NCBI GenBank assembly: GCA_964187785.1
Contig: OZ076409.1
Span: 69,504,001 to 69,568,000 of the forward strand
Origin: Amphiscolops sp. MND2022
Lineage: Eukaryota
Length of the DNA stretch: 64,000 nucleotides
Direction of reading: 5' to 3'
Below, one piece after another: positions 29,801 to 61,948 of this stretch. The notes below the pieces were generated by a model. It searched no databases. It was not told the DNA's origin and worked only from the letters and a program-made list of their open reading frames with translations. Both the position numbers and the translations under genes were made by a program. Positions within the stretch are counted from its first letter, which is position 1; every line of letters starts with the position of its first letter.

Positions 29801-31721
29801 CTCTAGCTTAAAGTGTTGATTTTACTCCAAACACCTACTGAAAAACTTATGACGTAGCAATACAATCGAGAATTGTTCAAGACTTAAGTTAGAGCACTTT
29901 TTCTCATGGGAGCGGCTCACTATGCAGACGGTTGGGGGCGGTGCACTAAGCCGACGGTTCACTGAGCCGACGGTTAACTAAGCCGACCGTTCACAAAGTC
30001 GACCAAGTAAATTCGTTACATAAATTTTAATTCTTTAAAGAGGTTAGCATATCTGTTGTATGACTCGGTCGCCTCGCTCTCTTCGCCAAGTAGCAGCATT
30101 GAGGCATGGCATATTGGTAGGTCGCTTCACTCCTGCATTTAGGGCACTAGAGGTATGTGGCCATAGCTGACTACGTTATCGTAATGTTCGATTGACGCTA
30201 TTCGGTTTACATGTACACGCATTTGGAATGTGTATTTGTCCAATCAAATTTGAGAATGAATTTAATCGCGCGTTCAGAATGATATTTATCACGCGCTGAG
30301 AATGAATTTTATTGGTCGGCTTAGTGAACCGTCTACATAGTGAGCCGCTCCCAGACGGTTCACTGAGCGGACCAAATAAATTCATTCTCAGCGCGTAATT
30401 AAATTCATTTTGAACGCGCGATTAAATTCATTCACAAATTTGACTGGACAAATACGCAATCCAAATAATAGTATATGTAAACAAAACAGCGTCAATCGAA
30501 CATTACGATAACGTAATCAGCTATAGTCACATACCTCTAGTGCCCTAAATGCAGGAGCGAAGCGAAGCGGAGCGACGTGCTATATGGCCATGCCTCAATG
30601 CTGCTACTTGGCGAAGAGAGCGAAGTGACCGAGCCATACAACAGATTTGCTATCCTCTTTAGAGAAATAAGTTTATTTATTGAATTTACTTGGTCGGCTT
30701 TGTCAATCGTCGGCTTAGTGAACCGTTGGCTTAGTGCACCACCCCCTTTCTCATTGATTCATTTAGTTTTTGGGTTGTTACATTTTTTCTTCCCTAATTT
30801 TTGTTTTAAAAATTACACCCCTGTGATTAACCATGTAGAGAGTCACTTTGTCAGTTATGGGGTTTAAATGAAACGACAAGCCATGTGGAACAATGTCCTA
30901 AACAAGAAACTTGATGAATGATTGAAGGATGCTTGTCAGTGTGAATATCTCAACAACTATTTGGGATTATTAGAAAATTAAACGCTACTTCCGTTTTTTG
31001 ATGACCGTAATGCTTCGAGATCAAACTTGATTGAGTTAACTGTTTGAACTTTAGTTATACATGATTTATATATGTGGTCATCCATGATCATCCATGGCAT
31101 CATGGCTTCTCACCCACTGTCATCCATGCATCGTGGATATCTTTCGATGATCATGGAATAATCCTCAGCATGGCAAACCAATGGAAGGAATACCAAAGCC
31201 TGTAAACCTGGATGGTTACAAAAAAATGAACTCATACTCTTCAGCGAAAGGAGCCAAATTAATGTTTCTTCGATTGCATCGTTGATGAATTTTCTCATTC
31301 AAGCATCGCTGAAGTAATTCGATAGTTTTTTGTATTGAAAACTACGAAATGCAAACGCCAAAACACCTGATTCGTGTCTGTCTCTCACTTTTAAATCATA
31401 GTTGGAGCTGAATTTCAGTCTTGTGACGTTTTTCGATGGTTGGTTGAAATCAAACATGTACAATCCAGGGTCTTTGATAGCACTCGTGTTGTGGAAACCT
31501 TCAAGCTTATATCCTGACGTCATTATTGCGACTCCATTCGGCAGAACTACTATCTTTTCGGCTCCGAACTCAATTCCTTCAACTACTCGACAAGGACCAG
31601 GGTAGTGGTTGTATAAAACTCTTTGCAGACCCAGACTATTGTAAATGTCGAAGAAATTGTAAACTGCTAAGGAAAGAATGAGAATAAAAAGCGGAGTAAC
31701 TGCTTTTCCGCAAAACGTCAT
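20845..31721 (-). CDS. PON: Paraoxonase/arylesterase (Ca-dependent six-bladed beta-propeller lactonase), complete, ~374-376 aa. Exons 31721-31389, 30897-~30820, ~29575-29341, 21411-21207, 21122-20845
   Basis: Spliced translation is collinear with PON1 as recalled: N-terminal hydrophobic helix, C42, E53 (GAE), H115 (PHG), H134 (VNH), N168/D169 (INDV), N224 (PNG), D269/N270 (VDNI), H285 (THP), SQVLRL, LLIGSV, C353 (VHCE). Introns 1, 3 and 4 are GT-AG with consistent phases (0, 0, 1). The intron 2 junction is ambiguous (see findings). Confidence 0.93.
21565..22664 (+). repeat. BEL/Pao 5' LTR
   Basis: Direct repeat of 27756-28855 with roughly 15 differences by eye. Three short GTGAACTTTGC..ATCAACATGGCCG units at its start. 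Confidence 0.97.
22692..27726 (+). pseudogene. gag-pol: BEL/Pao gag-pol polyprotein (Gag, 3 Zn knuckles, PR, RT, RNase H, IN), disrupted
   Basis: KLPKLDLPSFSG; CPFC..H..C, CFNC..H..C, CRHC..HH..H; LLDSGA; FYVDD; FCDAS/ELCAA/WSDS/NPAD; IN HH-CC, DFAGP, SDNGTNF, GLWEAG. Frameshift near 22960 and a rearranged/deleted segment at ~26200-26457. Confidence 0.95.
27756..28855 (+). repeat. BEL/Pao 3' LTR
   Basis: Direct repeat of 21565-22664. Confidence 0.97.
29908..30746. mobile_element. MITE (GGG-initiated TIRs, 8-bp TSD TTTCTCAT) with a second, inverted copy of the same family nested inside (29934-30352, TSD AGACGGTT)
   Basis: TSDs read directly: 29900-07 = 30747-54 and 29926-33 = 30353-60. Termini GGGAGCGGCTCACTA and GGGGG(C/T)GGTGCACTA. 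Confidence 0.9.
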
Positions 31722-31951
31722 TTCCTGAACGTTGCAAAGACACCGGTTAACAATGAAATGTTCTTAGAAAGCGAATTGCTGCAATTACATCGTTTGATAC
31801 ACAAATTTTATTCATCAAGAACAGCGATTTTTTGAGCGGTTGATTTGTTTCAACAAGATCGGATACTTCTCAACCCCAGGGAGCCGGGCCCGTTTTCCAA
31901 GTGATTTCCAAATTCTATCGAATGCAGCAAATCTACAAGTAACTTGGAACC

Positions 31952-32219
31952 TGTACTGATCTACATTAATAACCAATAGTATTTAGATGTTTATAGAATG
32001 TTCTAGAATGTACATTTATTTGTTATTGAATGATTGTAAATCTCTACTCCTTCAGAGAGAGAAAACTAATAATCAGTATTCAGTTGACTTCCTTTTTGTT
32101 CTACTCCTAACACCTCGGAATAGTTGTAATAAAGTAAGCTAGCTAGCCTGTCTCTCAGCCGCTTTTAGTAGTTGCGTATAAGACCATAAAAACAATAACC
32201 AACCATTAAAAGCAGCACA
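31952..32219 (+). repeat. Gypsy 5' LTR
   Basis: Identical to 49615-49882; TG...CA termini; contains AATAAA. Confidence 0.97.
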
Positions 32220-32460
32220 ATTTGGTGCGACTTGTAAAATTTTTCTCTTGTCCTTTCTCCTGGATGATTTCTCTTCTCTCAACAATCATACAAATACCAC
32301 TCTCCATATTTGAAATTCTCTGGAATTGCAGTGAAATCTTTCTAGAATTTCTTGAAAGTTTGGTCTGTGACTTTCTAAATTTCATTAACAAATACATCAT
32401 CGTTCGAAACACAATTTCTCCACTACAACAATCAATTTTAATATAACAAAATTTCTTCAA

Positions 32461-32790
32461 TACCGGTTTATCACGTTCTCTAACACGTTGACACGGTTCT
32501 TTTTCCTGTTCTTCTAGCCATACCGGTTTATCACGTTTTCTAATACGTTGAAACGGTTTCATTTCAGACTGATTTATCCATTGTGACACAGTTCTGTTTT
32601 TCTTCTTTTTCCAGACTGATTTATCCAAAGTGACACAGTTCTGTTCTCCATACTGATTTATCACAGCTAATCCGGAAGCTTGTTGAAACAGTTCCTTGAT
32701 GCTTGTCTGGTTTATCAAGGTTTTCTAACATCTTTGACACAGCAACATTTGTCTGGTTTATCAAGGTTTTCTAACACCTTTGACACCGCA
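32461..32790. repeat. Short tandem duplications (60-, 47- and 47-bp periods) in the provirus leader
   Basis: TACCGGTTTATCACGTT x2; CAGACTGATTTATCCA..GTGACACAGTTCTGTT x2; TGTCTGGTTTATCAAGGTTTTCTAACA.CTTTGACAC x2. Confidence 0.85.
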
Positions 32791-34151
32791 CCTTTCTTCA
32801 ATCCTGCTATCTTGAACGTCAGGTGGACTCCTGGTGTAATAGTTGACTGAGTGCATGTCTAACTCCGTTCACCTATAAGCACATACGTCTCAAGATCAAC
32901 TTCGTGTTGGCAGAAAACCTGGATTTTCTACTTTTACATTTCGGATCCCATTTCTACAAAATTTCCTATAAAAAAATTTCAGAAATAGACTCTGAAAACA
33001 AAAACAGGCAACCAAGACTAACTACCGAAAACAACCACGCACTATTCCCTTTCTTTCCCTATTGTCGACAAACAATACAAATAAATTCACAAAACTTAAA
33101 TAATACACATAACTCCAAAAAAATGTTTTCACCAATCAACAAAAATAACAATAACAAATAAACTCAAACTTCCCTTAAGTACTTCTAATAATAATAATAA
33201 TTTTAACATAAACCTATAAAACCATTCTTTTAACAAAATACAACATACAATTTTCACAACTCTTTTGCTTTAAAACTTAAAATAAGGCAGCTAAATAAAA
33301 CAAAGAAAGTAAAGTTAGTTTTCTACTTTCAGGCACCCACAATTCCTATTCCCTCCCGTAAGACTTAGCCAATCAGATAGCCTCACCAGCGTACTCTGAT
33401 TCTAAGACTGACTAAAAACCTTAGTTAAGTGTAAACGTCTTTAAGGAGAATCGAGAGGACACCGAACTACGTTCGAATCTTCAAAATTCTCAGGAAGTAA
33501 AAGTAAAAGTAAAAGAAACAAAGATCAAATTTTGATCTTGATCAGTATTGATCAGACTTTAGATAGTGGACGTTGATTGTTCAGAGTTCCACTCCTTTAG
33601 TCTTAAAACACACAACCCACTTAAAATTAAAACAATCTTAGTTTTTCTGGACGTGTCAGTAACCTTATGTTAGACACCTTAAAGAGATCCAGACTTAAAA
33701 TAACATTTAGTTTCTGTTAGCAATCCTTTGAGGTTGAATACAGATCCTATTGCAACCGCTTATTTCTTCTCTATCCCAAAATATTAACTTCTCAAATAAC
33801 TTCAAATTACAATACAACTTTTATGAACCCAAACCAAGAAATTTATCCTTTCAACTTTTACATTCCACCAATTAGCTCTCTTCAAAACCCTACACCAGAC
33901 GATTTTGAAAGATTAATTGAACGATATCAACGATATTTCTTCTATATCATAAATCAACAAAGAAATTACCCAAGAGCTCGAACTTAGAAAATCTTTATAT
34001 AAAACATTCTAACGTTATAACTTTCACATTACAACATGTGGGAAAAGGTTACAACAGTAGTACTCATTACAACATACAAGTTTTGTGTCTTATTTATAGT
34101 TTGTGTTCTTCTTGAAAAAATACTTACAGTGATAAGAGATAAACTTTAAAA

Positions 34152-37100
34152 ATGTCTTCAACGACAACCCCTCTACCTTTCCAAATTCCCACCATTAAAA
34201 ATGCAAAAGTTGTAAAATTAGAACTAAACCCATTTCTACAAAACATTCTTTCACATTATACACAACCACTCCCATTTGAAAATGAACCACACACAATTGA
34301 AACAATCCCTCTTATTAGAGAACATTTGGACACATACCTTTTCTATATTAGATATAAAGTTTTAACAATCACCGAAGAATACCCAACTTTTCAAATATCT
34401 TTTCCTCAACAAAAATTTAACTCATCTCATATATACAGAAGAACAATAAACCCAATAAACCTTCAAGTTCCTATTAAACAAGTCTTTCATGCTTTTCTAA
34501 ATAATGTAAAAGACCACAATTTAGCACACGAAATTCCAAAATATAGTCCAAATGCACTCGACGATCTTCAAAGATACATAGACAATTTCGACGTAGAAAC
34601 TATTGAAACATTGGTTAATCCTGAAAACAATCCTCATCATTGGTTACAAACTGATATATTACGAATTCAAAATTTCATCTACCACTACTTCAAAGACCTA
34701 ACATTAAATAACCAAACAATTCCTCAGATCAAAGTAATATCTTTATTTCTTAGAAAATATTTCAGATTTGATTACCAATTATTATGGTCTCAACAAGATC
34801 AACCTGCTTTTACAGAATTCCCAGATCATTTTACATCAGAAGAATGTTTACCATTCATTATCAGCGAACAAAATGAACACCCTTATTTTCATAAACCACA
34901 ATTAATTACAAAACAAACCTTAGATTACATACGTTTCGATCCTCTATTAATTACAGAAAATGATCTATTCCCAGATAATAGACCTTACCACTATCAACAA
35001 AATTCTCAAGATCAACAAAATTTACATTTTAACACCAACAATTCTACTGAAGACGATAACACCGATCAAGAAAATACAACCCAACAACAAAATCAACCTG
35101 AAAACTATAACGATAATGAGTTTACTACCCAAGAATCTACAATTTCAACACATAATCCATCTTAAACAGGGACATCAACATCAGTACGTACTTACTCCTT
35201 TAGAGTTCCAACTAGAGTTATAAATCAAGGACAAAATATTCATAGTCCTCAATCTCATTTAGATACATCTCCAAACCGTAATATAACTTTTAACCTTCCA
35301 CATACAGATAACATAAACGATGAAACCCATGATATATTACAATATGATACTATGACTACATCTAGTGCTCACAATACTTCTGTTAATGTTGCATCCCCAA
35401 CAAGAACTACCTCTGATTCTACAAGATACATTACTCGACCTAGATATGATCCTCCATCAATTCCCTCCGCCTTTCGCTCAAACAGATCGACCACTTCTAG
35501 CAACAATTTTAATGATAATCCTCAAACTTCCAACCGATATTACGATCCATTTATTCATAACTTTTATCCTCCATCAAACACAACTACCAATACGAATATA
35601 AGCCAAAACCACTCTCAAATTAATACAATTTCAACAACACAAAATCCCTTCATACAATTATCAAATACCAATACGTCCCAGAATATACATTCTCAAACTC
35701 GAGGAACCTCGTGTACTTCCATTTCTTATTCTAATATTACACAGAATTCTCAAAGAAGACTTCATAATCCTCCACTCACACATATACCAACTGATCCTCT
35801 GTATCAAACGCATTCAAATCCAAATCTTAACCCTAATCCTAACCCATTACCATCAAATACAATCCAACATATACCTCCACCACTCACACAACAATTAGCT
35901 CCGCCACCCTAATATTTCCCAATGCCGCAAGATACCTTTATAAACATGTCCGCTTCAATACCAGAACCTATGAAACCTTTTGATGGTTTGGACCTTTCTT
36001 ACACCCCTGAAGAATATCTACAACAAGTCGAAGCAAGATTAATTTTCGCCATAGGTGAAGAACCTCAAAATAATCCTATAAAATACAAATCTTGGCATAA
36101 TAGACGCATGGCTTACATACAATGTTCATTAATAGGAACAGCTCTCGATTGGTACACTAACCTCCATATATCATATAAACAACAATGGAATTCCTTTGTA
36201 CAACTATTTAAAAAACAATTCTCATCTCAAAAAACTGCTTACTACGCTCAAGTAGAAGCTATGTCACTCATGAAAAAGGATAATGAAACAGTTCGCCACT
36301 TCGCCCTTAGAGTACAACAATTAGTTAAAAAGGGATGGTGTAATGAAAATGCAGCTACCATAAATCTCAAAAATAACGAAATCTTTACAAAAGGGTTACC
36401 AAAGAAATTAAAAGATTTTGCCCATAAACGACAAGTTAAACATGTATCAACATTACTTGAACCTTCAATACCATTTCATACACTTGTTAGACATGTCGAT
36501 TCAGAAGATATTGCTAATGAAAAAATCAGAACTAACGACTTAGCCTTAGAAATAAACAAAGTATCGCTTGAAGAAGATACTAACAAAAAAAAAGTTGAAT
36601 ACGAAGATCAGATAATGGTTACTCAAACTGGAGACCCAAATAACAAAAGCAAACCAGCGTATAGAAAATATTGTTCATATTGTCATAAAAATAATCATAG
36701 TATTTCAAATTGTTATCAAAAACAACGTGATGACGAATACCAGAATTACAATAACCAAAGATCACGAACTCCTCAACAATCCTTTGTACAATATTTCCGT
36801 AGTAAACCTAATAATCCTCAGGAAAATCGGAATGAAAATACAACTCTTATTCCTCAGATAATGATCGTAATAATAACAATCAAAACTACTATAATGATAG
36901 ATACAAAAACAATGATAGATATCGTAGCAATAGTAGAGAATATTCGCAAAACAACTATAGATCAAACTCTCGACAAAGATATCATAATCGATCCCGAAGT
37001 CCGTATAGATCTCGATTTGATAATTATTATCAAAGAAGAACTCCATCTAGATCTCCATATAGATCTCCATACAGAAATAACTCAAACTACAGATATAATT

Positions 37101-40100
37101 CTCGCTCAAGATACAGATCTCGTTCTCAATCACAAGGAAACTCCTTTAAACGATATAATTACCCATATAGATCTCCATCAAGACCTAGAGATTTTAGATC
37201 AAGATCTAGAACACCCTCAAGAAACAGACAACAAAACAGAATAAATCAAGTAGACGTTAAAACACCAAAAGAAATTGATAGTACAAAATTTGAAATCCAC
37301 ACCTGTCAAATGACTGAAATAGCTAATACAATCACCCCTTATAGTTGGTTTTATCCACTATATATTCACGCCTCTGAAACAAATGACAACATATTACCTT
37401 CAAAATTAGAAATCTTATTCCTTTTAGATACTGGAGCTTCCATATCTGTTTTGAATTTACCAACATTTCATGTAATTTCCAAACAATTAAACATCAATGT
37501 TCCAACTAACATCCAAAACAAAAGAGCCAAAACTCTTACAGTTGCAAACCAAACTGAAGTACCAATAAAACATTATATTTCGATGACTTGTTTCACTGAA
37601 GTAAATCACAAAACACGATCCTTCAATATCGATTTTGCCGTAGCAAATATCAAATACAACATTCTTGGAACACCCTTTTTCAAAAAGCACATCCAAAATA
37701 TTGATTTTCAACAAAACATTATGACATATACAGAACAACATCCAAAGCTTTCAACAAAAACTACATTTTCTACATTTACAGAAAAAGATTATCCATATAT
37801 TTCTTACATTTATACTATTAAATGTAAGGAACCAAGTCACTTTAAACCAAGGTCAGGAAAAACCATACATTTCCCAATTAAAAACTATTCAAATCTACAT
37901 TTTGAACTCGAAGATAACACGAAGTTCTACCCAACAAACCCATATACATATTTCTTACAAAAATTTAAAAATATCTTTCATTTCTTAGACATGATAGTCA
38001 ATGAAAAAAGCAAAGACTCATGTGCAACTATAATTCAAAACTGTACATCTTACCCAGCTACATTACCACAAGGAATTATTGGATATATAGAAATACCAAT
38101 TACGCAAACAACTCCTCCTCACTACAGAGTTAACGATGTAAATTCACTCATTCACTCTGTAATACATGCATATCACCCTGATACGACAACCCCGAATAAA
38201 CAAAATCCATATACAGAAGATTCTAACCAAGAACTTGAATCTTGGCCTATTGAACCTTTAGCTCCTCAATTAGCTAGAGCAAATAAAAAATACAAATCAA
38301 CTATTGATCTAATGTATGCATATGCTCATACACCATTAGATGAAGAAACAATTAAACTTACAGGGTTTTCATCCGGTGACAAATTATACGCCTTTATCCG
38401 TGGATTTTACGGATTAAAAGGACTTCCAAACTTTTTCACAAAACAAATGTCAACTTTCTTTAGATCACTTATAGACAAACGTTCTGCGTTAGTTTATATA
38501 GATGATATTCTATTACTCGCAAATGAAAAACAAGAAATGTTTGAACTTATAAAAGAATTACATACAATAGCATCTCGAGAAAATCTCAAACTTGCACCTG
38601 AAAAATCGTTCTACATGCTACTCAAAGTAAAATTCCTCGGACATGAAATTGGTAACAACACAATTAAGTCAATTCCATCCAAAATTGAAGCTATTAAAAG
38701 AATCCCATCACCAAAAGAAAAGAAAGATGTTATGCAATTTCTTGGCAGTGTTAACTTTTATTCAAAATTCATTGAAAAACTTCATATAAACCTTAAACCA
38801 TTGTATACATTACTACATGATGATGTTTAATTTCAATGGACACCTGAATTAGAAAAACTATTTCAAAATGTTAAAAACGCAATGACAGCAGATACTGAAT
38901 TAACAATACCCAACACTACGCATCCATTTTTTATAACAGTAGATGCTTCGTTAGTAGGTTTAGGCGCAGTCTTATTCCAAATGAACGAAGAAAATAAGAT
39001 GAAAGTAATCTCTTATAACTCCAGAATTCTCAATACACAAGAACAAAAACTTTCAACTTTAGACAGAGAACTTCTTGCAATAGTTTACGCATTACAAATA
39101 TATGAATTTTTGATCATTGGATCTCCTCATCCTATATATCTCTTCACAGATCACAAGCCTTTATTACATTGCTTCGCAAAGAAAAGAAATCTTAGTCCTA
39201 GATTCTACAGAGCACAAATGCAGTTAACCAAATTCTCCAAATTAAAAATCATTCATACCCCTGGAAAAAATTTAACTGTAGCAGATATGCTTTCAAGAAC
39301 CTTTACAAAAGAACAGCTACAAGTACACCAATTACGACACAAACAATTAACACCTCAAATAGATTTCTCTATCATGAAAGATAATCAACTCAAACCACTA
39401 CATTATTTATTAAAACATGAAGAAATAAAATATAATCAAAAAAAGTGATTGTCATCCTATCCTTGCTGATTACGGAGACGATCAATTCTCCATCCGTATA
39501 AATAACAAAGGAGAAGATATACATATAAAGCCTTTAGATTCCTTCTCTTTTCAATCTATTGTTCCATTCGAATCAAAATATAAAAGACCTACAAAAAAAA
39601 CAAGCAAAATCTCTTTTACAACAATCGGCAATTCTTAATGATACTGACATTTTTAGTGATGAAGATGAAATAACACCACCAAATAATATCCAACAACAAA
39701 ACTCGAACATAGTAAAAGAACATACCCTTGCTATACAATATCCTACCAAATCTGACTATTGTACACAACAAGTTCCATTTTTTGATCCGTCTTTTTTCAA
39801 ATACAAAAAGTATTTTAATTACTTCTTCCTACCAGAAGATACACAAATTACTATTGAAACAATAAAAACTCAACAAAATCAAGATACTGTTTTACAAAAG
39901 GTTTACCAATGGATACTTAATAATGAAAGACCCTTACAAATAGACCCAACAATTGCAGCTAACTCTTTCCTATTAGTATATTACAAACTCTTCAACCAAT
40001 TGTATATTAATCATGATACAAAAATTATTCACATAGATTATCCTAATCTTCACGATTCCAACCCGAATCAAAGAGACAAAATATGTTTACCATTTAAACT

Positions 40101-41643
40101 TTTCCACACAGCTTTTAACAAACTCCATGCTCATGGACATTCAGGAATAAAAATATCCATCAAAGCTTTCAACCAATTTTACTTCATACAGTACCTAAAT
40201 AAATGGATGTCAATATTCATCCATGATTGCATTGAATGTCAACAAAATAAACATATTAACCAAAAATTACAAACTGCATCTATACAAACCTTCTCAGAAA
40301 ATGCTTCATATTTTAATTACAGAATATCAATGGATACAAAAGGACCTATAAACCCACCATCAAATCAAAATTCATACATTCACGTTATAGTAGACGCTTT
40401 TAGTCACTTTGTAGTAACAGTACCCATAAAACAAAATAATGCTCAAAACGCTGTTAACTCATTACTACATCATTGGATAACAAAATTTGGACCTCCTGTA
40501 TACCTAGTTACCGACCGTGGAACAGAATACATTAATTCAGAATTTGCAAATCTTTGTACTACAATGGGAATTAGACATTCACCAAGAACTCCTTATGCAC
40601 CATGGACAAATGGTTTAGTTGGAAATCAAAACAGAAATCTTGGAACTCATCTTAGACTTTTTTTACATAACACTCCAGAAAATTGGTCAACTCAAGTCCA
40701 TATGTATGCTTATGCACATAATTCACAACCACTTTCTGAATTAAACTTATCTCCATATGAAATAGTATTCCATACTATACCCAGAATTCCCATCAACTTT
40801 GAACTCAATCTCCAAAGAGATACATATAGAAATTGTACGTCTCAATATTGTCAAGAGCTACCACTTCATACACACTATGACAAATCAAATCTAAACCCTT
40901 TCTTTCATAAAATTTTATCTAAACCAATTCCACAATGGATCTTAGCTACTGAAACTGCCATGATACAGATATACCACACGGTATATGAAAACACAAAAAG
41001 AAAGATTAATTCCTACGCTTATTTTAACAAAACATATCATAATCCAAGTCCCTTAGATATTGGTACATTTGTACTAAAAAGAAATTTTCTCCATGTTCAT
41101 TTTTCCGATAAATTAAAACCTCTCAGAATTGGCCCATTCAAAATTTTTAACAAACTCTCCGATATAACATACGAAATTGTTAATCAAGATTGTTATACAT
41201 CGCACATACATAGAAATCATTTAATTCCTTATTATCCAAAAGAACCAGTTATTATCCCTTTCATACAACAATATAACCCTCATTTATTTAATGACTGTCA
41301 TTCAAATACAAATGATCAAATAATTAACTCTGATAAAGACAAATTTACAGACGAAGAACAATTTCCTTCCACAACATTTAATAAAGAAACGGATGTACCA
41401 TCCACGATTGATTTACAATCAGAACCATTTAACCAATATTCTTCATTTCCATATAAACAAAAAGAACAAATTCCTCAAAATACCTCCCTGGATAACCAAT
41501 CAGATATTCATGATTATGACAATTTTATTAATCCCCGAAGACACTCCTATATTAGATACAATTTCCGCCCACAACCAAGAAAAGACTACCGACTCTTCCT
41601 TGGTGAAAAGGATATAATTTCACTTTCTCAAAAATCCTGCTGA
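34152..41643 (+). pseudogene. gag-pol: Gypsy gag-pol polyprotein, disrupted
   Basis: ORFs 34152, 35352 and 35922 share one frame, split by single TAA codons. Capsid-like region (MKPFDG...ALDWY..MKKDNETVRHF), CSYCHKNNHSISNC knuckle, RS/Y-rich stretch, LLDTGAS protease, YIDD RT, VDAS/ELLAI/TDHKPL/ADMLSR RNase H, HAHGH..CIEC, SMDTKGP, TDRGTEY, GPF. Lesions at ~35163, 35910, 36840, 38200 (deletion), 38828, 39445 and 39595. Confidence 0.93.
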
Positions 41644-41811
41644 AATACGGAATACAGAAAGAAATACACACAAAGAAAGTTTGAAAGAAAGAAAAAGTTT
41701 GAAACTTAGAACGAAAATAAATGAAATTCATTTTACGAATGAGAATAAAAGAAAGAAATCCTAATTGATATAAAACTATAACTATTTTACAAGCTGAAAC
41801 TAACTATCATA

Positions 41812-43282
41812 ACACAACGATTTCAAAATTGATAGACATATTCACTCACCATCATCAACTACAAATAACTCTTCTTCTAGTTCAACACATTCACTCCAAA
41901 GATTACCTGAATATACAGCATATTTAAACACAGATACAGACATACTGGATTCCTCATCCTCAAATCCCAGTCCATCCGCTCCATATACTCCTGATAGAGT
42001 ACCAACAACACCCACTAATACACCTATATCCCAAACTCAACCACAAATATTAACAACTCAATCACAACCTAGTTCACGAAATCTAACATTTTTAGAAACA
42101 AATTCACCACTTTCTGACTCTAATGATGAAACACCTACAATACCAAATACACAAGATACTTCAGATATTTTGAATAGACCTCCTCTTCTACCGATTACTA
42201 CCACTCGTTCTATTCATATCCCTGATCCTAACTCAGTATTACAATACATAAATTCTTGTCCACACAAAGTACCAACTGCAACGAAAACAAAAAGAAAAAC
42301 TCCTTTACCAACATTACCACAAAATCTTGATTTACCATCATCAAGTAATATCCCAATAACTTTTTTACCAGAACCTTCATTAAAATCACCAACGAAAAAA
42401 TCACAACAATACCCAACTCCTTCACCATCGGAACTAAGTTCCTTCACATTTTCTCAAATATATCCCAAGCTTGAATTACAACGTGTACATTCAACAACTA
42501 CATCTTCATTAACAGACTTATATCATAAAGATAAAGACTCTGACTCAACTGCTAGTACTAGAGTACCAAGACATAATTATAACCTTCGATCTCAACAACA
42601 AAGAATTTCTCAAGAATTACAATCTTTAACTAGCTCAAGTACAAATTCAAGACTACTTCGACAACACGCTCAACCCAGATTGGACACTTCTTCTTTTTCC
42701 TCATCTCAGCCCACTATACCATCTTCTCTATCACTACCATTTCAAATCACTTCAGGATTTGAAACAGCCTCTCTTATTTCTGAAGAGCCAGCAACTATAT
42801 CAGATAGCGCAGCTAATTTTTCACGAGTTTACTCACCTAGTTCAATAGCCTCAAACTCCTCTATACAATTACCTGAATATTTTTTAGAAGACTTCTCAAG
42901 ACCTCCATCGCCAAATCCTCACGAATATCCTATTCGTGTTAACTCAAAAATTGTTCGCACGCTTAACGAAGATCCTCGATACACGGTATTACCTGCAAGA
43001 TTTATAAACAATAGTTCACTCTCAACTCAAAGAAAACAAAGAGAACTACGAAGATTACAAGAACAACAACTCACATTAAAATTTGAAGTAGAAGTCACCT
43101 TCAACTCGTTAGGACCTCATCCATTCCCTCTTTCAACAAGAGCAGCACATAAAACAACCCCATCACCATTCATTGTTACCTCCATTTCCTACCTTTGTGA
43201 CGCCGATTTACCTGAGATTAGAACAGGACATATAAACTTTTTTAATCCCTACTCAGGACTCAATTATAGATCAATATTTTAA
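41812..43282 (+). CDS. Accessory Ser/Pro/Thr-rich open frame (~490 codons, no ATG) between pol and env; function unknown
   Basis: The frame of ORF 42170-43282 stays open upstream to ~41812. Contains RHNYNLRS, resembling RYNFRP at the Pol C-terminus. Confidence 0.6.
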
Positions 43283-43284
43283 CC

Positions 43285-45860
43285 ATGAACCAAATCACCT
43301 TTACCTTTCATTTAATATATATAATACAAGTTGTTAAATACACGTATATAATAAATATAGTTCACTCTTAGTTCATCCTTCAACTGTTCCCAAAGTTGAC
43401 ACCATCAATTCCGAAAATCATATTTCAGACCAAGATCCTAACATTTTAAACTTAATGGTATCTCATTATGATTGTGCAAAACAAAACAACCTAAGACAAT
43501 TCAGTTTATTAAACGTAGAACCATGTAAACAATCACCCTCAGATATACAACACACAAAAACCCAAGCAACAATTTACGTTAGAGCAAAAGCCAAAAGAAT
43601 AAAAGCCTTTAAATGTGAAGCATATATAAAGACTGAGAAAGTCTGGTGTTCACAAACATTCACATCTAGTAGACGATATGATCGTTTACAATGGGGACAA
43701 AACACATTAGAACTTCCAAAAATATTGGACCCTATTGAATGCAAAAATATGATCAGATATTTAAACGCGACTGATAGCGAAGAATTAAACAACTACAATA
43801 TACAAAGCTCTTTCTCATTGTTCGATGATAGTAATTATCAAAACACAATTGAACGAATTCAGACACCATTTAGAGTAAAAAAATTAAATACATGGCATAT
43901 TGGAACCTTCGTATTTGACGAAAATTATCCTGATTGGATAGTTAACGTTACACAAAATACATACTCTAGATGTCGATCAGACCGCGAACATTTAATCACC
44001 CGACAAAGTTGGAAACTTAGAATTGTTAACACCGCAATAGATTATGACGATAAAAACAATCAATTAATACATGACGGACACATATTACCATGTTATCATT
44101 CAGATGGATTTTGTAAACCAACGACCAAAACTCCATATACATTAACATTGTTTGATGAAAAATTTTGCCTCATATTTCAACTTCAAGAATTCATTGGTAG
44201 AATGACACGAATCAAAGATAGATATTGGATAGAAACCGATACCTTTATTGAAACTTCAAACATCACACAAAAACTTCAAACTGAAGGAATACAAGGAACA
44301 AAATACCCTAATATAAAAACAACAAAATCAAAAGTAAGCAATCCAAGCCTTTCCTGATTTGAAATATACCCAATTGCACAAACTTTCTGTGGAAAACCTG
44401 AACCATTATTTTCAACACAATATGATGAAATCTTTGTTACATACTTAGATGGTTTTGATATGAATACAGGATTACCAAAACCACACTCAATAATTGACCA
44501 AACAATTAGTGGAAATATAAAATATGATGATTCAAACAAAAGGTATATATTCCCTGCATTGAATATATCAAACAATTTCGCCACTTTAGACTATGATGCC
44601 CACATTAATACAAAAATTGATTTCACAATAAATCATGTATTTAAATCCATGACAGTACAAGAATTAAACACTCTACATAAAATATGTGAACTAGAAAGAA
44701 CTCAACTGTTAACAATACTAGCAATGTCAGTTAAAAATCCTCAATTAGCCGGTTTTCTTTTAACTGGAAATCGTAGTAACTTTCTCTACGTTGAAGGATC
44801 TACAGCATGGCTGTATGATTGCCCTCATTTTATATCACCACTATACAAGGCAGATAAATGCTTTGATAGAATTCCTATACACTACAGAGAAACGATAAAG
44901 TATGTTGACCCAATAACAAGACAAACTTTTAACTACGCAACTCCAATTGAATGTGGAAATAACCCACAAAATATAATAGAATTAGATCCAGATTCTAACG
45001 ACGGAGATTTTTATGTGTTAACACCAGAACCACTCAAACGAGAAGCACCACAAATGTTTAAACCTACCCAAATTAAAACGACAATCACTCCTAATACATT
45101 TACCGCCCAAGATGCCGGTATAAACTCAAATGCAGAATTAGATCAATTCTGGAATAGAGTATTATTTGCTAAACATTCAGATACAACTCTTCAATTACTT
45201 GGAAAATCATTAAGCTATGATTTCATTTCAATGCATAACGAAAAACACTCATACTCACAACATAATCCCTACAATCATTTAAGGATTGGAGTACATGACC
45301 ACTTGTTAAATCTTTTACCACTTTTTAACCCTGACTGGTTCAGTCAAGCATTCATTAAATTCTTTGGATATCCATGTTATGTTTTAACCCAATGTGGAAT
45401 TTATTTCTCAACATTCCTTTTCATTAGAGAAGTTTTAACATTTTTACTCAAATTCTACAGAACAATTAGCATAAAATATAATCTCCAAAGCAATATTTCC
45501 ATTTTGAGTTCAATAGCCCATGGATTTTTTAATATAGTTACATCGGAAATGGTAACCGATTTAAATAATACAGGAAAACGAAAACGGATATATACTAAAC
45601 ACAAAATTACAACAAGTGAAAATGATAATATCCTATTGCCGGAAAAAGAATTGAACAATAAACGAAGACACTCTGATACTGACTCCCCTTATTTACCTCC
45701 TAAATATTCCAGTAAGAATTCAACATTTCAATCACCGCAAAAGACACACCCAACTAATGTAAACGATATTAATTCTCAGGACTATGACCCAATTATGTCA
45801 AATGTAATAGCTGTACCGGAAAGTCCTGCTAAAGTCTTTATAAAATTCAATCCCTCCTAA
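43285..45860 (+). pseudogene. env: Envelope glycoprotein, class III fusogen-like (chuvirus G / herpesvirus gB family), with one frameshift and one premature stop
   Basis: Hydrophobic leader from ATG 43285 (frameshift ~43345). HYDC..FSLLNVEPC..KCE..WCS; ICELERTQLLTILAMSVKNPQLAGFLLTG..EGSTAWLYDCP..CFDRIPI..YVDPITR..IEC. C-terminal hydrophobic segments and tail; N-glycosylation sequons. ORFs 43455 and 44460 share a frame, split by TGA at 44355. Confidence 0.85.
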
Positions 45861-46281
45861 CTGAAAAGCAATAATGTAAAAAACAAATTAACCTCAAGAA
45901 AAGTTCACAAAATTATCAACCAAATTCTTCTCAGTTTCAACTTTCATTCACATCCAAATTCTCACTCGGACCGGTCTCTCCTTTTCAACTCAACTCAACT
46001 CAACTCTCAACCAGAAGACATCAACTGGATTTTCAGTCCATCTAAACGACCGAAATCACAGAAGTTTCTATTCCTGGAATAGATGCCACTGTGATTGTTG
46101 ATGTGTTCAACCGATCATTGACCCAGTATTCCCATACTGTAAGTACAATTTAAACTTTAATTTTAACAAACAATTTAATGGATAGAAAAGACATAACAAA
46201 AATTTTCCTTAGTATTAGAAAAAATGTAACCAAATGTTATAATTATTATTTTAGCTCTACAAAAACACGCAAGTTTAAATA

Positions 46282-47576
46282 ATGGAATCCTTGCCCGAAA
46301 TTGATGTAGTTAATTCTAATCCCTCTGAATTGCTTGCAACCCCTTTTAAAATATAACTATTCAACAAAATGTTAACGAAGATAATAACTCTTCCTCCAAC
46401 TCTCAAGATCCTATAGAGAATATCCCTATTGAACAAGTAGATCATGTCAACACAAGATCTCAAAAAAGAAAGTACCCAGATATAACTGCAGATAAACCTT
46501 TTATGGAATCTGGCGCTTGCCCTCCTTCCACAAAACCAATTAAACAAGATGAAGATAGAGATTGTGAATTAGTTCCTATTCTCTCGTCAAAACAATTCAC
46601 ATTTCAATCTCAGTTAACTTCGTTATACATGATCCCAACAAAATACAAATTCATCATCAGAGAATTTAAAAATGATTATCATACATCAATTGCTTCAAAA
46701 CTGATTACCCCATATGATTGGTGGTTAAACAATAAAGTGAAAATTTTCTCACTTCAATACAACTTCCTCAGACCATCTCCATATGATCTCCGAACAGAAG
46801 AAAATGATGCAAATTTTTTGCCATATCAAATCAAAAAGGCCCACCATATGACTTATCAAAAGTTCCTTCAATATAAAGAGCCCGATAATTATATATTCTT
46901 CAACTCAAAATATACATCGCCATTCACTTTCAACTCAGAATATTTAACAGATCATACCAAAACAAAAGGAAAACTTAGAAATTATGACCCACTGAAACAA
47001 AGTTTTCTCTTCCTTCCAAATGATAACCCAAAAAGACCAATCATTGTTCCACAAGAATACCTCATTCTAAACGACGATTCGTTACTACAAGAAGATATAC
47101 CTCAACATATATCTGATCCTCTTCCTCCACTTCAACAAATAGCCTCTCAACCATTGGGAGACTGTGAAAAGTCTTATTTTCACGCAATGATCAAACAGGG
47201 ATATTCAAACAATGAATTAATTTTCATTATTTCCCACTTGCTTTCACTTCTTACAAATGGAAATCACAAAGAATATAAAAAGGCAAAACAAGAATCGCCT
47301 AAGAAAACCAAAAATGATATTCCTCAACCACAAAGCTTTCGCCCAACAGATGAATTACAGAAATATACAGAAATTCTGAATATCATAAAACCGTATCATC
47401 ATCCAAACCGAGATATTCTTATAACAATCGCTGAAATCGTAAATACCCTTGAACAAGCTCGAAGCATAATACAAAATATCGTATTTGATACGACAAGAAT
47501 TAGCCAATCAGCTTTGTGCATTCGCACATCTTTAGACGAATTCAACTACACTATTGAAAAAATGCATCGATCTTAA
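46282..47576 (+). CDS. Accessory ORF downstream of env (357 aa intact part 46503-47576, probably ~430 aa originally); unknown function
   Basis: Long sense-strand ORF inside the LTRs. The frame is open upstream of 46503 and reaches ATG 46282 through a 1-nt shift in an A run near 46350. Confidence 0.65.
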
Positions 47577-47982
47577 CTGGTAATTATGGGATAAAAGCTT
47601 TAAAGTTATTAACACTTATCACTTAATCTTTTAACAACCTGTCAAAAATAATTGAATCTACACGCATATGCCTGCTATGCATGAATTTAATATTTACTTG
47701 ATGTTAAAATACATTTTTAAAATGAAATAACAAAAAAATTTCAATCACGACATAAAAATTTTCAACGAAATTCTTCAATTGCTCCTCCTTTTAATGGACC
47801 GATTTCAACAAATAAGTACTTATATGAAAGATATTTAAATACCCTTCAAAAGACTTCCAAAATACAACAACTTAATACTTAAAATTAAAAAGTTATAACA
47901 TCACAAAATTCAATAAAAAAATGTCAACTACGAAATTCTATTTTCAAAGGAACTTTATTGTAAACAAACTAATCTATTTTAG

Positions 47983-48574
47983 GAGAATATCGTCACAACT
48001 GCTTCTTCCGCATTTCTTCCTTCTCTCAGGTCACCCATTCAAGAAGAATTCCGAAGTATCCTCTACAGCTTTCAACGAAATTTTCTCATTCTTCAATATG
48101 ACAACTATCCACTCTGGCGACATTGACTGCCCGATAGCTCCTTTCCTTTAAATCTCTTCAGCTCGATTGCGATCCTTGATCCTGAAAAAGCATTTAACGA
48201 CATTAAATGCGCAGCTTCGAACAGAAAAAAAGGCTGACCCACATCTCACAAGGATGATATTGCTTAATATGTTCCAAATATTCCAAATAACAAGAATAAA
48301 TTTCGACCAATATCTCCATATTCATAAACATCCTGACACTTATTCAACTCAAAAGGATGCCACTACACAAACGGAACATACTACAATCAAACCCAAGCGT
48401 TTACTACGAACCCTATCCAATAGAATGCGTTACGAAATGGAAAAACAACGTCTAAATTCATATTGGCCCTCAGATGACAATGATGACACTGACGAAGACC
48501 TTCAAAAAGATCACCCAGAAGCACTTTTAGACGATAACTATCCACATAAAACATATACTTACGTTTCCTTCTAA
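47983..48574 (+). pseudogene. Further degenerate accessory ORF/exon; unknown function
   Basis: Follows an acceptor-like ctattttag. Protein-like reading (ENIVTTASSAFLPSLRSPIQEEFRSILYSFQRNF...) with a stop and a shift into ORF 48167-48574. Confidence 0.4.
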
Positions 48575-49614
48575 CATCATCAGACGCCACCAACAGCACC
48601 CGTCAACTCTCATCTTCGAATTCCACATCTTCTACGAGCAACAGATCAGCACCCATCTTCAATTTCATCGCTGCCCAACAGTTGCCCACCTTCATTCATC
48701 TGCTGACCCTTCTTCTTCCATCTTCCCATCGTCCATCATCACCCACATGCTCAGCCGAAGATGATCGATAATTAATAATAAAGAAAACTCAAAGAAAAAA
48801 CACTGTGCATGATAACATTTCGAAAACTTTCAAACTCATCTAATATTTAAAGAATTCAAACTTTTACCGAAATTATTAATTATGTAGTTACTATTTCAAA
48901 TTTCATCCCCACCCATATTTATTTGCCCAAAAATCTTTTATTCATACCCATACCGATATTTATTTGCTTTACTTTTAAAGAATAATTAGTAATAATCATT
49001 ATTTTTCGGTGCTATCCTATCCAAAAAATTCACAAATATTATCAACAAATGTTTTCAAATTTCAACAAAACCAACTCAAAATCAGATCAAGCACATTGTT
49101 CAGATTAAATTTGAATAATGACAGACCCAAATTCTCAAAGTTTTCAACATTTGTTACATAACAAACCCGCCAAAGTTAATCACAACCTGAAATTTTTTCA
49201 AACGTATTTCACGTTCAAAAATTTTTCTTTCTCAACAATATTATTTCCTTGACTCTTTGACCTTTAACTCGTATGATGTTTGCTCACGTTTGTTCAATGC
49301 GAAGTTCATTCAAAACTTCAACAGAAGCATAAAATTGAGCATCTACCAGTTCAAAAAACAAGCCGACGAAAGCATAGTGAAAAAGAACACTTTGACGCTT
49401 TTTGAACTGTAGTCGCACCTACGAGGTGTCAATCAAAATTTTGACAATTCGAGGTACACCAATGAGTCGAACTACACCACTTTTAATGAGACTTATGCCA
49501 ATCATACATCAAATGAAAAATGTAAACTAGCTGAAACGCTAAGAACATTTAAACAAAAAATTTTTCTTCATTTCATGATGCTACTTTGGATTTTTATTTA
49601 AAAACCGGGATGGA

Positions 49615-49882
49615 TGTACTGATCTACATTAATAACCAATAGTATTTAGATGTTTATAGAATGTTCTAGAATGTACATTTATTTGTTATTGAATGATTGT
49701 AAATCTCTACTCCTTCAGAGAGAGAAAACTAATAATCAGTATTCAGTTGACTTCCTTTTTGTTCTACTCCTAACACCTCGGAATAGTTGTAATAAAGTAA
49801 GCTAGCTAGCCTGTCTCTCAGCCGCTTTTAGTAGTTGCGTATAAGACCATAAAAACAATAACCAACCATTAAAAGCAGCACA
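49615..49882 (+). repeat. Gypsy 3' LTR
   Basis: Identical to 31952-32219. Confidence 0.97.
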
Positions 49883-49977
49883 AACCCATGATGAAAAACA
49901 AGTTTGGAAAACGTTCAAATAGTATTTGAAAATACCTCCTTGGGAGCTTTTCATATTCATAGCGTTCTGAAATATTG

Positions 49978-50454: not shown

Positions 50455-51516
50455 TTGAAATTAGCGGTTTGGATACAATTGGGAAGCGAAAATATTGGAT
50501 TCCCGACGTTTCGGCAAAAGACGTTTCGGCAAAAGACGTTTCGGCAAAAGACGTTTCGGCAAAAACATGGCGGCGGACGTTTCGGCAAAAAAAAATATGC
50601 CGAAACGTCTCAGGCTAAAAACATTTGCCGAAACGTTTCGTATGATATGTTGGGCATATCCGGTGTATGCACGCTCGCCCTCATCGTCGCAAAGACCAGC
50701 TCCCACTACGATCGCTTCGCGATCTCCGTTCCCGCTAAGTCTTTGCTCCTGTTCGACCTCGCTTAGCAAAATGGGAATATAAGCGGCCCCAAGGAGCCGC
50801 GGGGCACTAGAGGAAATGGGGACATATCCGAGGCACGTTTTATGCTTTCCATCATTCCTACATTAATGGTCTTATCGTTTTTCTACAATTCCAGAATTCT
50901 ACAAACCTAACCAGTTTGCAAAAAACCAAAAACAAAACCAAGATAATACGGGACGTTTCGGCATGAAAAATTTGCCGAAACGTCCCGAGTTTTTTTGCCG
51001 AAACGTCTTTGCCGAAACGTCATGTTCCCAAAATATTTACTAATGTCAAAATCCTGATTTGGCGGTAAACTTGACAGTCTCAGCTGTATTTAAATTAGAA
51101 CTATTGCAACTTTGAGAACTTGCAAGGCTTCGTGGCTCCTAATTGCGGGCTAATAAAGAATGCACTGTTTAGGCAGCTGGATAAAATTCAATTAACAAAA
51201 TATTAATTAACAATTGTTAATTGTTATTGTTAATTGAATTTTGTCAAGCTGCCTAAACGATATATTCTATATTTGGCCGCAAGTAGGAGCCACGAAGCCT
51301 TGCAACTTATCAAAGTTTAAATGGAACATCGCATCCGCTCGTAGAAAAAAAGAATGTTATCCTATTCTATCCTTGCAAATTGATATTTCTTCAGACAGTA
51401 TAACTGCGTAGTTCTAACTTGAATACAGCTGAGATTGTCAAATTTACCGCCAAATCATGGTTTTGACTTTGGGAATTATTTTCGCTTACCAATTGTAGCC
51501 AAACCGCTAATTTCAA
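50455..51516. repeat. Old foldback/inverted repeat with a MITE in its left arm
   Basis: 50455-50496 plus 51030-51102 is the inverse of 51410-51516. 51109-51200 is the inverse of 51230-51318. Confidence 0.75.
50497..51029. mobile_element. MITE with GG termini, 15-bp GACGTTTCGGCAAAA subterminal repeats and 8-bp TSD
   Basis: AAAATATT at 50489-96 and 51030-37. The repeats are inverted at the right end (TTTGCCGAAACGTC). Confidence 0.88.
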
Positions 51517-60501: not shown

Positions 60502-61314
60502 TTTAGACTAATGAGCAAATATTGAGAAAGATATTCTGACTTTTCGTTGAAAAAAAGGTAAATTGAAACGATAACATTTTAGTTTCTGGGGATCCTTCTG
60601 ATTATTATAGCATTACGCCTGTGTTGGAATGAACTTGGAAGATTCCTCAACTCAAATTGTTTCGGTTTTGAGTAATTTCGTTGCCCTCAGCTTAGTGACA
60701 GGATTATGGGGAAACTCATTTGACGAAGAAAACAAAACTCCAAAAAGCAACAGCGTGCAGTCAGACATTTGTGACTCCGAGTAAATCACAGCTTGAAGCT
60801 GACCAGTTTGTATCCCGTACTGAGATCCCATTGCAGGTCATCGATGGCCATCGCAGTCCATCGATGGTCCATCGATGGGCATCGATGAGGTTTTCTAAAA
60901 ATTCGTTCGACTTGGCCATGTTCAAAATTTCAACAAAACTCTCGCCATTTAAGGTTTTCAGTCTATTTAAGCTTTGTTTGGGATTTCGAGGATGCCCAAA
61001 TATTTTATTCGGAAATGAAGTTATACATAGTTATCCGTATTATTTATCTTTGTGAAAAACCGGATTCTGTTGGTTTTCCAAGGAAAAACCACCAAATTTT
61101 TTGATACAAAAACGTATTTTAAGAGTCAAATTTCTGCATACTTCAGATACTTTATTTCTTACAAGCAGATGGTTTTCTCAGCAATAGAAGCTCGATTCCG
61201 TCGCACTTTCATGCGAATAATTGCAATTTTGCCAGGTTTTTCCATTTTTTCTTCAAACAATTCAAGGGCAAGGCTCCGAAATAAGTGATTTTCAGGCTGT
61301 TAAAATGTTAAAAT

Positions 61315-61556
61315 GTTGGCGCAAGATTTAAAGAAAATCGACTTAGAATTATTCAAGGAAGAATCTGGAGTTTAATTTTGACAAAAACTTCAAACTCAAC
61401 AAAGTTCACGAAAATGTGTAGGTTGGAATCAAATGCATTTGACTCCAACCTACACATGTTCGTGAACTTTGTTGAGTTTGAAGTTTTTGTCAAAATTAAA
61501 CTCCAGATTCTTCCTTGAATAATTCTAAGTCGATTTTCTTTAAATCTTGCGCCAAC
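61315..61556. repeat. 242-bp spacerless palindrome centred on ATGCAT
   Basis: gttggcgcaagattt...atcaaatg|catttgac...aaatcttgcgccaac, 2 mismatches. Confidence 0.96.
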
Positions 61557-61948
61557 GGTTTTTAACATGTTTAATTAATCATTTATGGTGCTTAGATTGA
61601 TGAGGTTATCTGAAGTTTGTTTGAAATTTACCTGACCGAGATACAAAACTTATGGAAATTTATTTCCATGCAGAAAGTACCGAGAAAGAAAACTGAGAAA
61701 TCCGAAGATTTAATTGCATGTCAGATGTGTCTCACCAATCTCATGAGCATATCCTGCTGTTGTAAAGGTTGCTGTTTGGATAACCGCTGTCTGGTTTACA
61801 AATTCAATCAATTTTGATATCAAATCCGAACATCACTAAAAAATATCATCGATCTCAATAACAGCTAGGAGTAGTTAACCCGGTTCCAGTCTAGACAGAG
61901 GTGACTGGCAAATTAGAATAGTCACGCTCAACATCAAATTGTTGCATG

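Follow-up and report, generated by a model that had tools for sequence, protein, structure and literature searches.

The element at positions 31,948 to 49,886 of the window, the stretch of 64,000 nucleotides from Amphiscolops sp. that was analyzed, is a defective and recent copy of a clade of env-bearing Ty3/gypsy elements of about 18 kb that probably became polycistronic in an acoel host. Among named sequences, the closest to the COX1 of this host is from Symsagittifera (75%). The clade displays a Ty3/gypsy anatomy, a fixed gene order, protein-level selection on its accessory ORFs, a conserved CTG codon, and a depletion of AUG codons. Its sequence supports placement with the “ancient errantivirus” type carrying a gB/chuvirus-like env, as a giant and complex form.

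Anatomy of the element and its sister families

The features of the window copy are as follows.

31948..31951, no strand, left target-site duplication AACC, matched by the right copy
31952..32219, + strand, 5' LTR, 268 nt
32223..32231, + strand, core of the primer-binding site (PBS), TGGTGCGAC
33823..33987, + strand, small ORF-a, soluble product of 54 aa, found in families A and A2 only
34036..34149, + strand, single-pass membrane micro-ORF, 37 aa, stop 2 nt before the gag ATG
34152..41643, + strand, gag-pol, a single frame in the family, broken in the window copy
41945..43282, + strand, ORF3, S/P/T-rich, no Met, 445 codons from the conserved CTG in the context A-nn-CTG-GAT
42578..42589, + strand, YNLR motif within ORF3
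43285..45860, + strand, env, chuvirus-like fusion glycoprotein (PF24664), about 858 aa in the family, broken in the window copy
46282..47576, + strand, ORF4, about 430 aa, without known family, broken near its start in the window copy
48098..48574, + strand, ORF5, about 158 aa, without known family, one internal stop in the window copy
49600..49614, + strand, position of the polypurine tract (PPT)
49615..49882, + strand, 3' LTR, 268 nt
49883..49886, no strand, right target-site duplication AACC

An initial annotation of the region had described 268-bp LTRs with a 4-bp target-site duplication, a leader of about 1.9 kb, a sense-strand order of gag, PR-RT-RH-IN, and env, an S/P/T-rich frame, and at least two more ORFs. 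All of this was recovered. Both LTRs have 268 nt and TG...CA ends, are 100% identical to each other in this copy, and are flanked by AACC; the 4-bp duplications of further copies agreed in 15 of 17 cases. Pfam domains on the + strand appeared in the order Retrotrans_gag, RVT_1, RT_RNaseH, Integrase_H2C2, rve, and Monjiviricetes_fusion, the S/P/T-rich frame extends over 41813-43282, and the two further ORFs are ORF4 and ORF5. The leader spans 32220-34151 (1.93 kb) but holds two small ORFs. LTRs with TG...CA ends, PBS, PPT, and short target-site duplication are the terminal features of Ty3/gypsy elements (Metaviridae), and the domain order CA-NC-PR-RT-RH-IN, a GPY/F-type IN tail, and the absence of BEL/Pao marker domains agree with this assignment. 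The Ty3-type RH and IN and the Monjiviricetes-type env set the element apart from the Retroviridae, with their retroviral RT and SU/TM env of class I. An Rfam search of the element gave no match.

Six sister families, A, A2, B, C, C2, and D, are present in the genome, with gag-pol sequences 53 to 89% identical. They group together on RT-RH (SH-aLRT of 99 in a quick tree); the relatives in this tree carry no Ty3/gypsy clade names, and the nearest of those outside the clade are at 39 to 42%. The order of membrane micro-ORFs, gag-pol, S/P/T-rich ORF3, env, ORF4, and ORF5 is kept across all six. These are not six independent tests because the families form three sister pairs. The PBS core is common to families A, B, C, C2, and D. 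The primer tRNA candidates, Val-TAC and Leu-TAA, fit families B and D best, and the match in family A comprises only 9 nt.

Gag and pol form one reading frame in the family; 2 of the 7 copies keep it open throughout the 5' stretch that was retrieved. It encodes an N-terminal domain of about 300 aa without known family, a low-complexity linker, CA, a CCHC knuckle, PR, RT, RH, and IN with a GPF motif. Membrane micro-ORFs of 37 to 48 aa without Gly2 precede it in all six families. Selection was not significant for small ORF-a (dN/dS 0.46, confidence interval 0.15 to 1.55) or for the micro-ORF in the comparison of B with D (0.49, interval reaching 1.05). The full-length RNA would yield the micro-proteins and Gag-Pol, and the short stop-to-start spacing suggests reinitiation.

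ORF3 and its proposed CUG start

Homology of ORF3 across families starts at A-nn-CTG-GAT in 19 of the 20 copies read. CTG accounts for only 0.3 to 2.4% of the Leu codons in gag-pol, env, and ORF4 and for none of the 108 Leu codons before Asp in these genes, and A..CTGGAT occurs only once or twice per approximately 18 kb. A GAU second codon promotes non-AUG initiation (PMC5074520). From this CTG to env, whose ATG lies 2 nt downstream of the ORF3 stop, the stretch lacks Met in 6/6 families, with an in-frame Met in one A copy. Out-of-frame ATGs in the stretch numbered 9 compared to 27 expected, and 8 control stretches showed no depletion; families D (P = 0.066) and C (P = 0.29), however, did not reach significance, and the 9 AUGs out of frame do persist. 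A conserved hairpin after the CTG was not found (z of +1.1 to −1.9).

The best reading of these sequences is that ORF3 may initiate at the CUG and that ribosomes may arrive at env through leaky scanning of a subgenomic RNA. Probably, an RNA starting in the pol-ORF3 spacer would be scanned such that a minority of ribosomes starts ORF3 at the CUG and the rest crosses the AUG-poor 1.2 to 1.3 kb to the env AUG. A non-AUG start combined with leaky scanning has a precedent in RTBV (PMC5902531); RTBV/badnavirus, with AUG-free scanning after the non-AUG start, belongs to a different virus family and is an analogy in mechanism only. The start of ORF3 may differ in A and A2 because the frame there is open and conserved for about 40 codons upstream of the CTG; it opens at 41813, and ATT-GAT at 41828 provides another near-cognate codon. 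Different frames and stops in the spacer ruled out that ORF3 is translated by readthrough from pol, and ORF3 as a detached env leader was rejected because it does not resemble the long leader of P0069.

Alternatively, cis-splicing may join ORF3, as a 3' coding exon, to an AUG exon farther upstream, in the gag N-terminal domain or a micro-ORF, with CTGGAT as a cis signal or a coincidence. Splicing produces the accessory protein CERV from Cer1 RNA (PMC10309623), and the AGs and the open conserved frame upstream of the CTG in A and A2, together with an AG shortly downstream in B, would be compatible with this. In families B, D, and C2, however, an in-frame stop precedes the CTG by 5 to 8 codons and no AG lies in the interval, and a scan with a generic matrix revealed no strong splice donor in the leaders of B, C, or D. 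Cis-splicing also leaves the rare codon in an optimal context and the loss of out-of-frame AUGs unexplained, and is unlikely.

The YNLR motif of ORF3 is present in all six families. In lamin A and PFV Gag, YNLR binds the nucleosome acidic patch; the foamy virus Gag chromatin-binding site has this motif in common with ORF3, again as an analogy in mechanism from a different virus family. The C-domain model was weak (pLDDT of 53; best Z of 5.2, to generic beta-sandwiches), and the 120 sequence matches listed out of 262 all belonged to this clade, as ENA or JGI proteins without a name. The ORF3 product may well be a nuclear factor, scarce and largely disordered, with YNLR as its dock on the acidic patch. 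Its most likely role would be control of the element's own transcription or a shield against silencing, and less likely a tether for the preintegration complex. ORF3 is not needed for tethering because the Pol tail likewise contains YNLR-like motifs in 4 of the 5 families checked. The initial annotation had not mentioned the YNLR motif, the membrane micro-ORFs, or the conserved candidate CUG start.

env, ORF4, and ORF5

The env product matched PF24664 with 85.7 bits (cut-off 27), and is thus homologous to the chuvirus/gB-like glycoproteins of the HSV/gB-type ancient errantiviruses. It has 16 Cys residues, and its hydrophobic N terminus and segment near residue 704 agree with a signal peptide and a C-terminal anchor. 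Its predicted class III fold rests on Pfam homology plus literature. A search of PDB sequences gave no match, and neither IMG/VR nor JGI contigs yielded env relatives.

In sister families, ORF4 or ORF5 is preceded at equal distance by acceptor-like TTTTAG/TTTCAG sites, past the last upstream ATG, for instance TTTTAG 27 nt upstream of ORF4 in A and A2; such sites are common in U-rich spacers of this kind. No site passed the filter of the acceptor scan before ORF3 of B or ORF4 of C2. The chances are about even that ORF4 and ORF5 would be expressed from their own RNAs, using acceptors in the U/A-rich spacers in cis- or spliced-leader (SL) trans-splicing; in a related acoel, 30% of the genes are SL-trans-spliced (PMC9911081). 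ORF5 of A and B are weakly alike and C carries a different protein; comparison of ORF4 with PDB sequences yielded nothing above the cut-off.

It is likewise about evenly balanced whether env and the membrane micro-proteins would carry particles between worm cells, for example, to germline or stem cells. The family may be expressed and infectious. Another possibility, improbable on present evidence, is that the genes are real but the downstream ORFs are reached by internal promoters or IRES-like entry without splicing, and that env mediates local cell fusion only, with no free particle. Most leaders are without a strong donor, the spacers are long and structured-looking, no furin site was found in env, and spliced retrocopies at one candidate acceptor were not seen, with the junction in 0/256 copies. 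The equal spacing of the acceptor-like sites argues against this explanation, and gB-type env does not always retain a furin site (PMC13524379).

Selection on the accessory ORFs and condition of the copies

Between sister families, dN/dS was 0.07 to 0.12 for env and 0.06 to 0.27 for the accessory ORFs (ORF3, 0.10 to 0.18; ORF4, 0.06 to 0.14; ORF5, 0.09 and 0.27), with confidence intervals for ORF3 to ORF5 far below 1, indicating purifying selection. The control, an overlapping non-gene frame, gave 2.2, which ruled out the 209-aa overlapping frame in NC as a gene. ORF3 and ORF4 retain 32 to 44% identity between the most distant families. The extra ORFs are therefore not copy-specific insertions; they are common to six families and selected as proteins. 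The search of Pfam and Atlas with ORF3, ORF4, ORF5, the micro-ORFs, and the Gag N-terminal domain yielded nothing above cut-off, and the accessory gene set appears to be undescribed.

In the window copy, gag, pol, env, ORF4, and ORF5 are all interrupted by in-frame stops and frame changes, and its RT has a gap of about 550 nt compared to all seven other copies. This copy cannot be infectious on its own. Among 8 A copies, env was full length in 2, and ORF4 likewise in 2. The LTR pairs of 17 of the 20 copies picked by an internal marker differed by 0.92% (42 differences in 4,563 sites), which largely fits decay after insertion as the main cause of ORF breakage. A set of 8 copies with only 2 differences in 2,144 LTR-pair sites had pointed to spread of defective copies in trans; this was rejected because these copies were chosen by LTR match and the internal-marker set gave 0.92%.

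That the element is an ordinary gB-env errantivirus with passenger DNA, its extra frames being by-products of a C/A-rich composition or captured cargo, might be proposed from its strong C-skew, the persistence of the 209-aa non-gene frame, and the breakage of most copies, but is very improbable and largely refuted by the dN/dS values, the identity retained across families, and the fit of the breakage to postinsertion decay.

Comparison with known elements

Complexity by accessory genes is mostly linked to vertebrate retroviruses. Here, selection maintains at least four extra genes in a Ty3/gypsy lineage whose families are only 53% alike, including three or four protein families without a database name. 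The lineage also offers a precise and testable example of a candidate CUG start that is deeply conserved and would be coupled to the expression of env. The clade occupies about 8% of the chromosomes and is a candidate contributor to LTR-rich acoel genomes.

The initial reading as a giant complex Ty3/gypsy element with chuvirus-like env and extra ORFs stands, except that the pairing of Gypsy with a class III env is not new, because HSV/gB-type env has been published in Ty3/gypsy elements of many invertebrate phyla (Chary and Hayashi 2026, PMC13524379). These ancient errantiviruses share the Ty3/gypsy gag-pol followed by a chuvirus/gB-like env, the multicopy state, and marine invertebrate hosts. 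The acoel phylum, Xenacoelomorpha, is not in the taxon list of that survey (0 of 11 acoel-related names in 7 supplements), and the architecture is outside its prefilter of a pol-env gap of up to 1 kb and a total of 10 kb, the gap here being 1.3 to 1.7 kb. A search of its main text found no accessory ORFs, which are present here. A reading as an undescribed, complex, probably infectious acoel metavirus with independent retrovirus-like complexity, a conserved CUG-initiated nucleosome-docking regulator bicistronic with env, membrane micro-proteins, and operon-like SL trans-splicing of the 3' genes would go further and is doubtful as a whole.

Burro, the giant planarian Gypsy element (PMC6431247), is similar in size class, thousands of copies, env homology, and extra coding capacity, but encodes one polyprotein of about 4,900 aa with env between gag and pol in more than 30 kb, whereas env is a separate downstream ORF here; the BIR, MATH, ankyrin, and dUTPase domains of Burro had no Pfam matches. 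MDG1-group elements (PMC11952523) likewise possess small ORFs before gag, sORF1 and sORF2, one of them transmembrane. They lack env, and their sORF2 is about 70 aa, polybasic, and often myristoylated, in contrast to the 37 to 48 aa without Gly2 next to an env; the features of sORF2/FAST-like fusogens (about 70 to 115 aa, N-myristoylation, polybasic tail, env-less host) are thus missing. Cer1 of C. elegans with CERV and elements with bdelloid ORF3s (PMC5408684) are also Ty3/gypsy with accessory genes, but with one each, expressed by splicing and without sequence likeness in Pfam. The mosquito elements with chuvirus glycoproteins (PMC7642597), as described in PMC13524379, use the same env family on a different, BEL/Pao backbone. 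BEL/Pao marker domains do match an element neighboring the Ty3/gypsy element described here.

The element and its copy in the window

The element is a real feature of the window. An initial annotation had proposed a giant LTR element from the sequence alone, and this was borne out: two identical 268-nt LTRs bound it, with an AACC duplication at both sides. The features of the window are as follows.

31952-49882, Ty3/gypsy element, family A
21565-28055, BEL/Pao LTR element, ends 99% identical
53604-56423, LINE ORF2 with endonuclease and RT, 939 aa
59270-60262, 29934-30746, 51030-51482 and 61310-61561, 173-bp tandem repeat and several long palindromic MITE-like repeats

The plus strand of the Ty3/gypsy element is C-skewed along its whole length, and the Pfam order is capsid, RT, RNase H, integrase and the Monjiviricetes fusion glycoprotein PF24664. 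Pfam matches to BEL/Pao marker domains occurred in the neighboring element alone and not in the Gypsy element; the BEL/Pao neighbor (21565-28055) gave no env match. The window copy is defective: gag, pol, env, ORF4 and ORF5 are disrupted by stops and frame changes, and its RT lacks about 550 nt that all 7 other copies compared have. In family A, gag and pol form a single frame, which was open over the entire fetched 5' stretch in two of seven copies, and the catalytic motifs of PR, RT, RH and IN were found in the family.

A conserved set of accessory genes in six families

The env search returned 69 relatives, all ENA proteins without a name. Three divergent env relatives led to separate families in the host genome and a fourth search to a close sister family. 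Gag-pol identity to family A across A2, B, D, C and C2 was 53 to 89%, and the elements of families B and D are 17.7 to 18.1 kb long. The extra ORFs are not confined to one copy: the order micro-ORFs (small membrane-protein ORFs in the leader), gag-pol, ORF3 (the Ser/Pro/Thr-rich frame), env, ORF4 and ORF5 is kept in all six families. In a quick RT-RH tree of 46 of 156 candidate rows, with named references absent, the six families formed a single group with a long stem (SH-aLRT 99), beside unnamed proteins of 31 to 42% identity.

The selection on env and the accessory ORFs that the initial annotation had asked about was found in pairwise dN/dS values within the three pairs of sister families: 0.09, 0.12 and 0.07 for env, 0.13, 0.18 and 0.10 for ORF3, 0.09, 0.14 and 0.06 for ORF4, and 0.09, saturated and 0.27 for ORF5. 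The Gag N-domain gave 0.11 to 0.18, and an overlapping non-gene frame, as a control, 2.2. For the membrane micro-ORFs, values were 0.10 and 0.02 in C-C2 and 0.49 (CI to 1.05) in B-D, and none of three changes in A-A2 was non-synonymous; small ORF-a (a 54-aa soluble leader ORF) showed no significant selection by dN/dS. ORF5 of A and B have a weak motif alone in common (E 0.02), and family C has a different protein there.

An ORF3 relative from a JGI contig (P0501) is 86% alike in the C-domain, so that at least one further dataset contains close relatives. A distant env (P0069, 23%) has a leader of about 270 aa ahead of the hydrophobic segment. Among Pol proteins outside the clade, the nearest (P0130, P0139) finish with extended low-complexity tails, of which one contains YNLR; this hints at a possible origin of ORF3 from a Pol tail.

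Predicted CUG start of ORF3 and coupling to env

We infer that ORF3 is probably initiated at a CUG. Met is absent from ORF3 in all six families, which represent three sister pairs, except for a private Met in one A copy. Cross-family homology starts at a Leu-Asp pair. In 19 of 20 copies read, CTG encodes this Leu, position -3 is A and the next codon is GAT; in the 20th the frame opens later and the CTG site lies outside what was read. CTG makes up 0.3 to 2.4% of Leu codons in the other genes and none of 108 Leu-before-Asp codons, and a whole element contains just one or two A-nn-CTG-GAT motifs. Families B, D and C2 have a stop 5 to 8 codons before the CTG and no AG in the interval, which excludes joining of an upstream exon there. 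A GAU second codon is reported to favor non-AUG initiation (PMC5074520). In A and A2, nevertheless, about 40 codons ahead of the CTG are also open and conserved, and an ATT-GAT in the same context there could be a second start.

Between the CTG and the env AUG, 9 out-of-frame ATGs were observed vs 27 expected by codon resampling (p 0.003 to 0.034 for four families, but 0.066 for D and 0.29 for C); eight control stretches showed no depletion. The env AUG comes shortly after the ORF3 stop in A, C and C2 and 30 nt after it in A2, whereas in B and D it overlaps the end of ORF3. Depletion and spacing fit leaky scanning on a bicistronic RNA, on which the CUG would serve ORF3 and onward scanning would reach the env AUG. 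RTBV provides a precedent (PMC5902531).

Candidate roles and expression

ORF3 contains 36 to 40% Ser/Pro/Thr, and its C-terminal domain of about 125 aa (dN/dS 0.06 to 0.09) gave a weak model that suggests a beta-rich fold. YNLR is present in ORF3 of all six families; the same motif of lamin A and of foamy virus Gag is reported to bind the H2A-H2B acidic patch (PMC12527912, PMC6021111, PMC12125541). The most economical reading would be a scarce chromatin-bound regulator, but YNLR-like motifs also stand at the Pol end in four of five families checked.

The A micro-ORF resembles one of the C micro-ORFs (E 3e-06). The micro-proteins occupy the place of MDG1 sORF2, but they are smaller than sORF2 and show none of its hallmarks. 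By analogy, they may have a viroporin- or Vpu-like role. An extra hydrophobic ORF of 78 to 79 aa directly precedes gag in B, D, C and C2 (loci L016, L026, L028, L030). In C and C2 the sequence TAATG combines the stop of this ORF with the gag ATG, and its C-C2 dN/dS is 0.22.

U/A-rich spacers precede ORF4 and ORF5, and the acceptor-like sites in them stand at corresponding distances within each sister pair (A/A2, -27 and -115/-116; B/D, -87; C/C2, -2). Little turned up when the leaders were scanned with a generic donor matrix. Since trans-splicing affects 30% of the genes of another acoel, S. roscoffensis (PMC9911081), SL addition could conceivably release the ORF4 and ORF5 cistrons.

Relation to known systems

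The initial annotation put forward this Gypsy element with a class III env and accessory genes as the best candidate for an undescribed system. The pairing of Gypsy and env is already known, since Chary & Hayashi describe Ty3/gypsy elements with a gB-type env from many invertebrates and tie that env to chuvirus glycoproteins (PMC13524379). Their sampling was without Xenacoelomorpha and their prefilter required a pol-env gap of ≤1 kb and a region of ≤10 kb, which the acoel element exceeds; env further downstream was also annotated by hand in some phyla. Burro is a precedent for giant Gypsy elements with env, as are Cer1 and bdelloid ORF3s for single accessory genes. In the part of the literature that was searched, neither the architecture nor a CUG-initiated accessory gene in a retrotransposon was found described. 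The conserved accessory set, the predicted CUG start and its putative coupling to env appear to be unpublished.

Host, abundance and age

Host mitochondrial COX1 was 75% identical to Symsagittifera roscoffensis and 73% to Baltalimania ylvae, both acoels, and ≤65% to the other named matches, which makes the host an acoel other than S. roscoffensis. A 27-nt marker of family A had 256 exact matches in the genome. The clade covers 7.6% of bases (bootstrap 2 to 14%; 6 of 60 evenly spaced 5-kb samples positive), a lower bound because the search library held six families.

Family copies are recent yet decaying. Both LTRs were at the expected place in 17 of 20 copies chosen by internal marker; LTR pairs of these differ at 42 of 4,563 sites (0.92%), and 15 have a perfect 4-bp TSD. 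The internal parts of eight copies differ pairwise by a mean of 1.48%, mostly through private changes. Clade elements lie inside or adjoin other clade copies (flanks of L022, L034, L038). Three family-B env genes at C9:7.86-7.90 Mb are spaced by exactly 18,204 nt, which suggests a head-to-tail array with common LTRs.

A tandem tRNA-Met(CAT) array (C12, about 35.59-35.66 Mb and beyond, L148; period about 220 bp, 12 genes within 3.5 kb) accounts for the majority of the places listed from 500 reverse-strand pattern matches. Five tandem tRNA-Leu(TAA) genes lie within 1.5 kb at L149 (C11:22.446 Mb) and five tRNA-Val genes within 3 kb at L143 (C2:56.57 Mb); the 3' end GTCGCA is common to the tRNA-Met, -Leu and -Val of the host.
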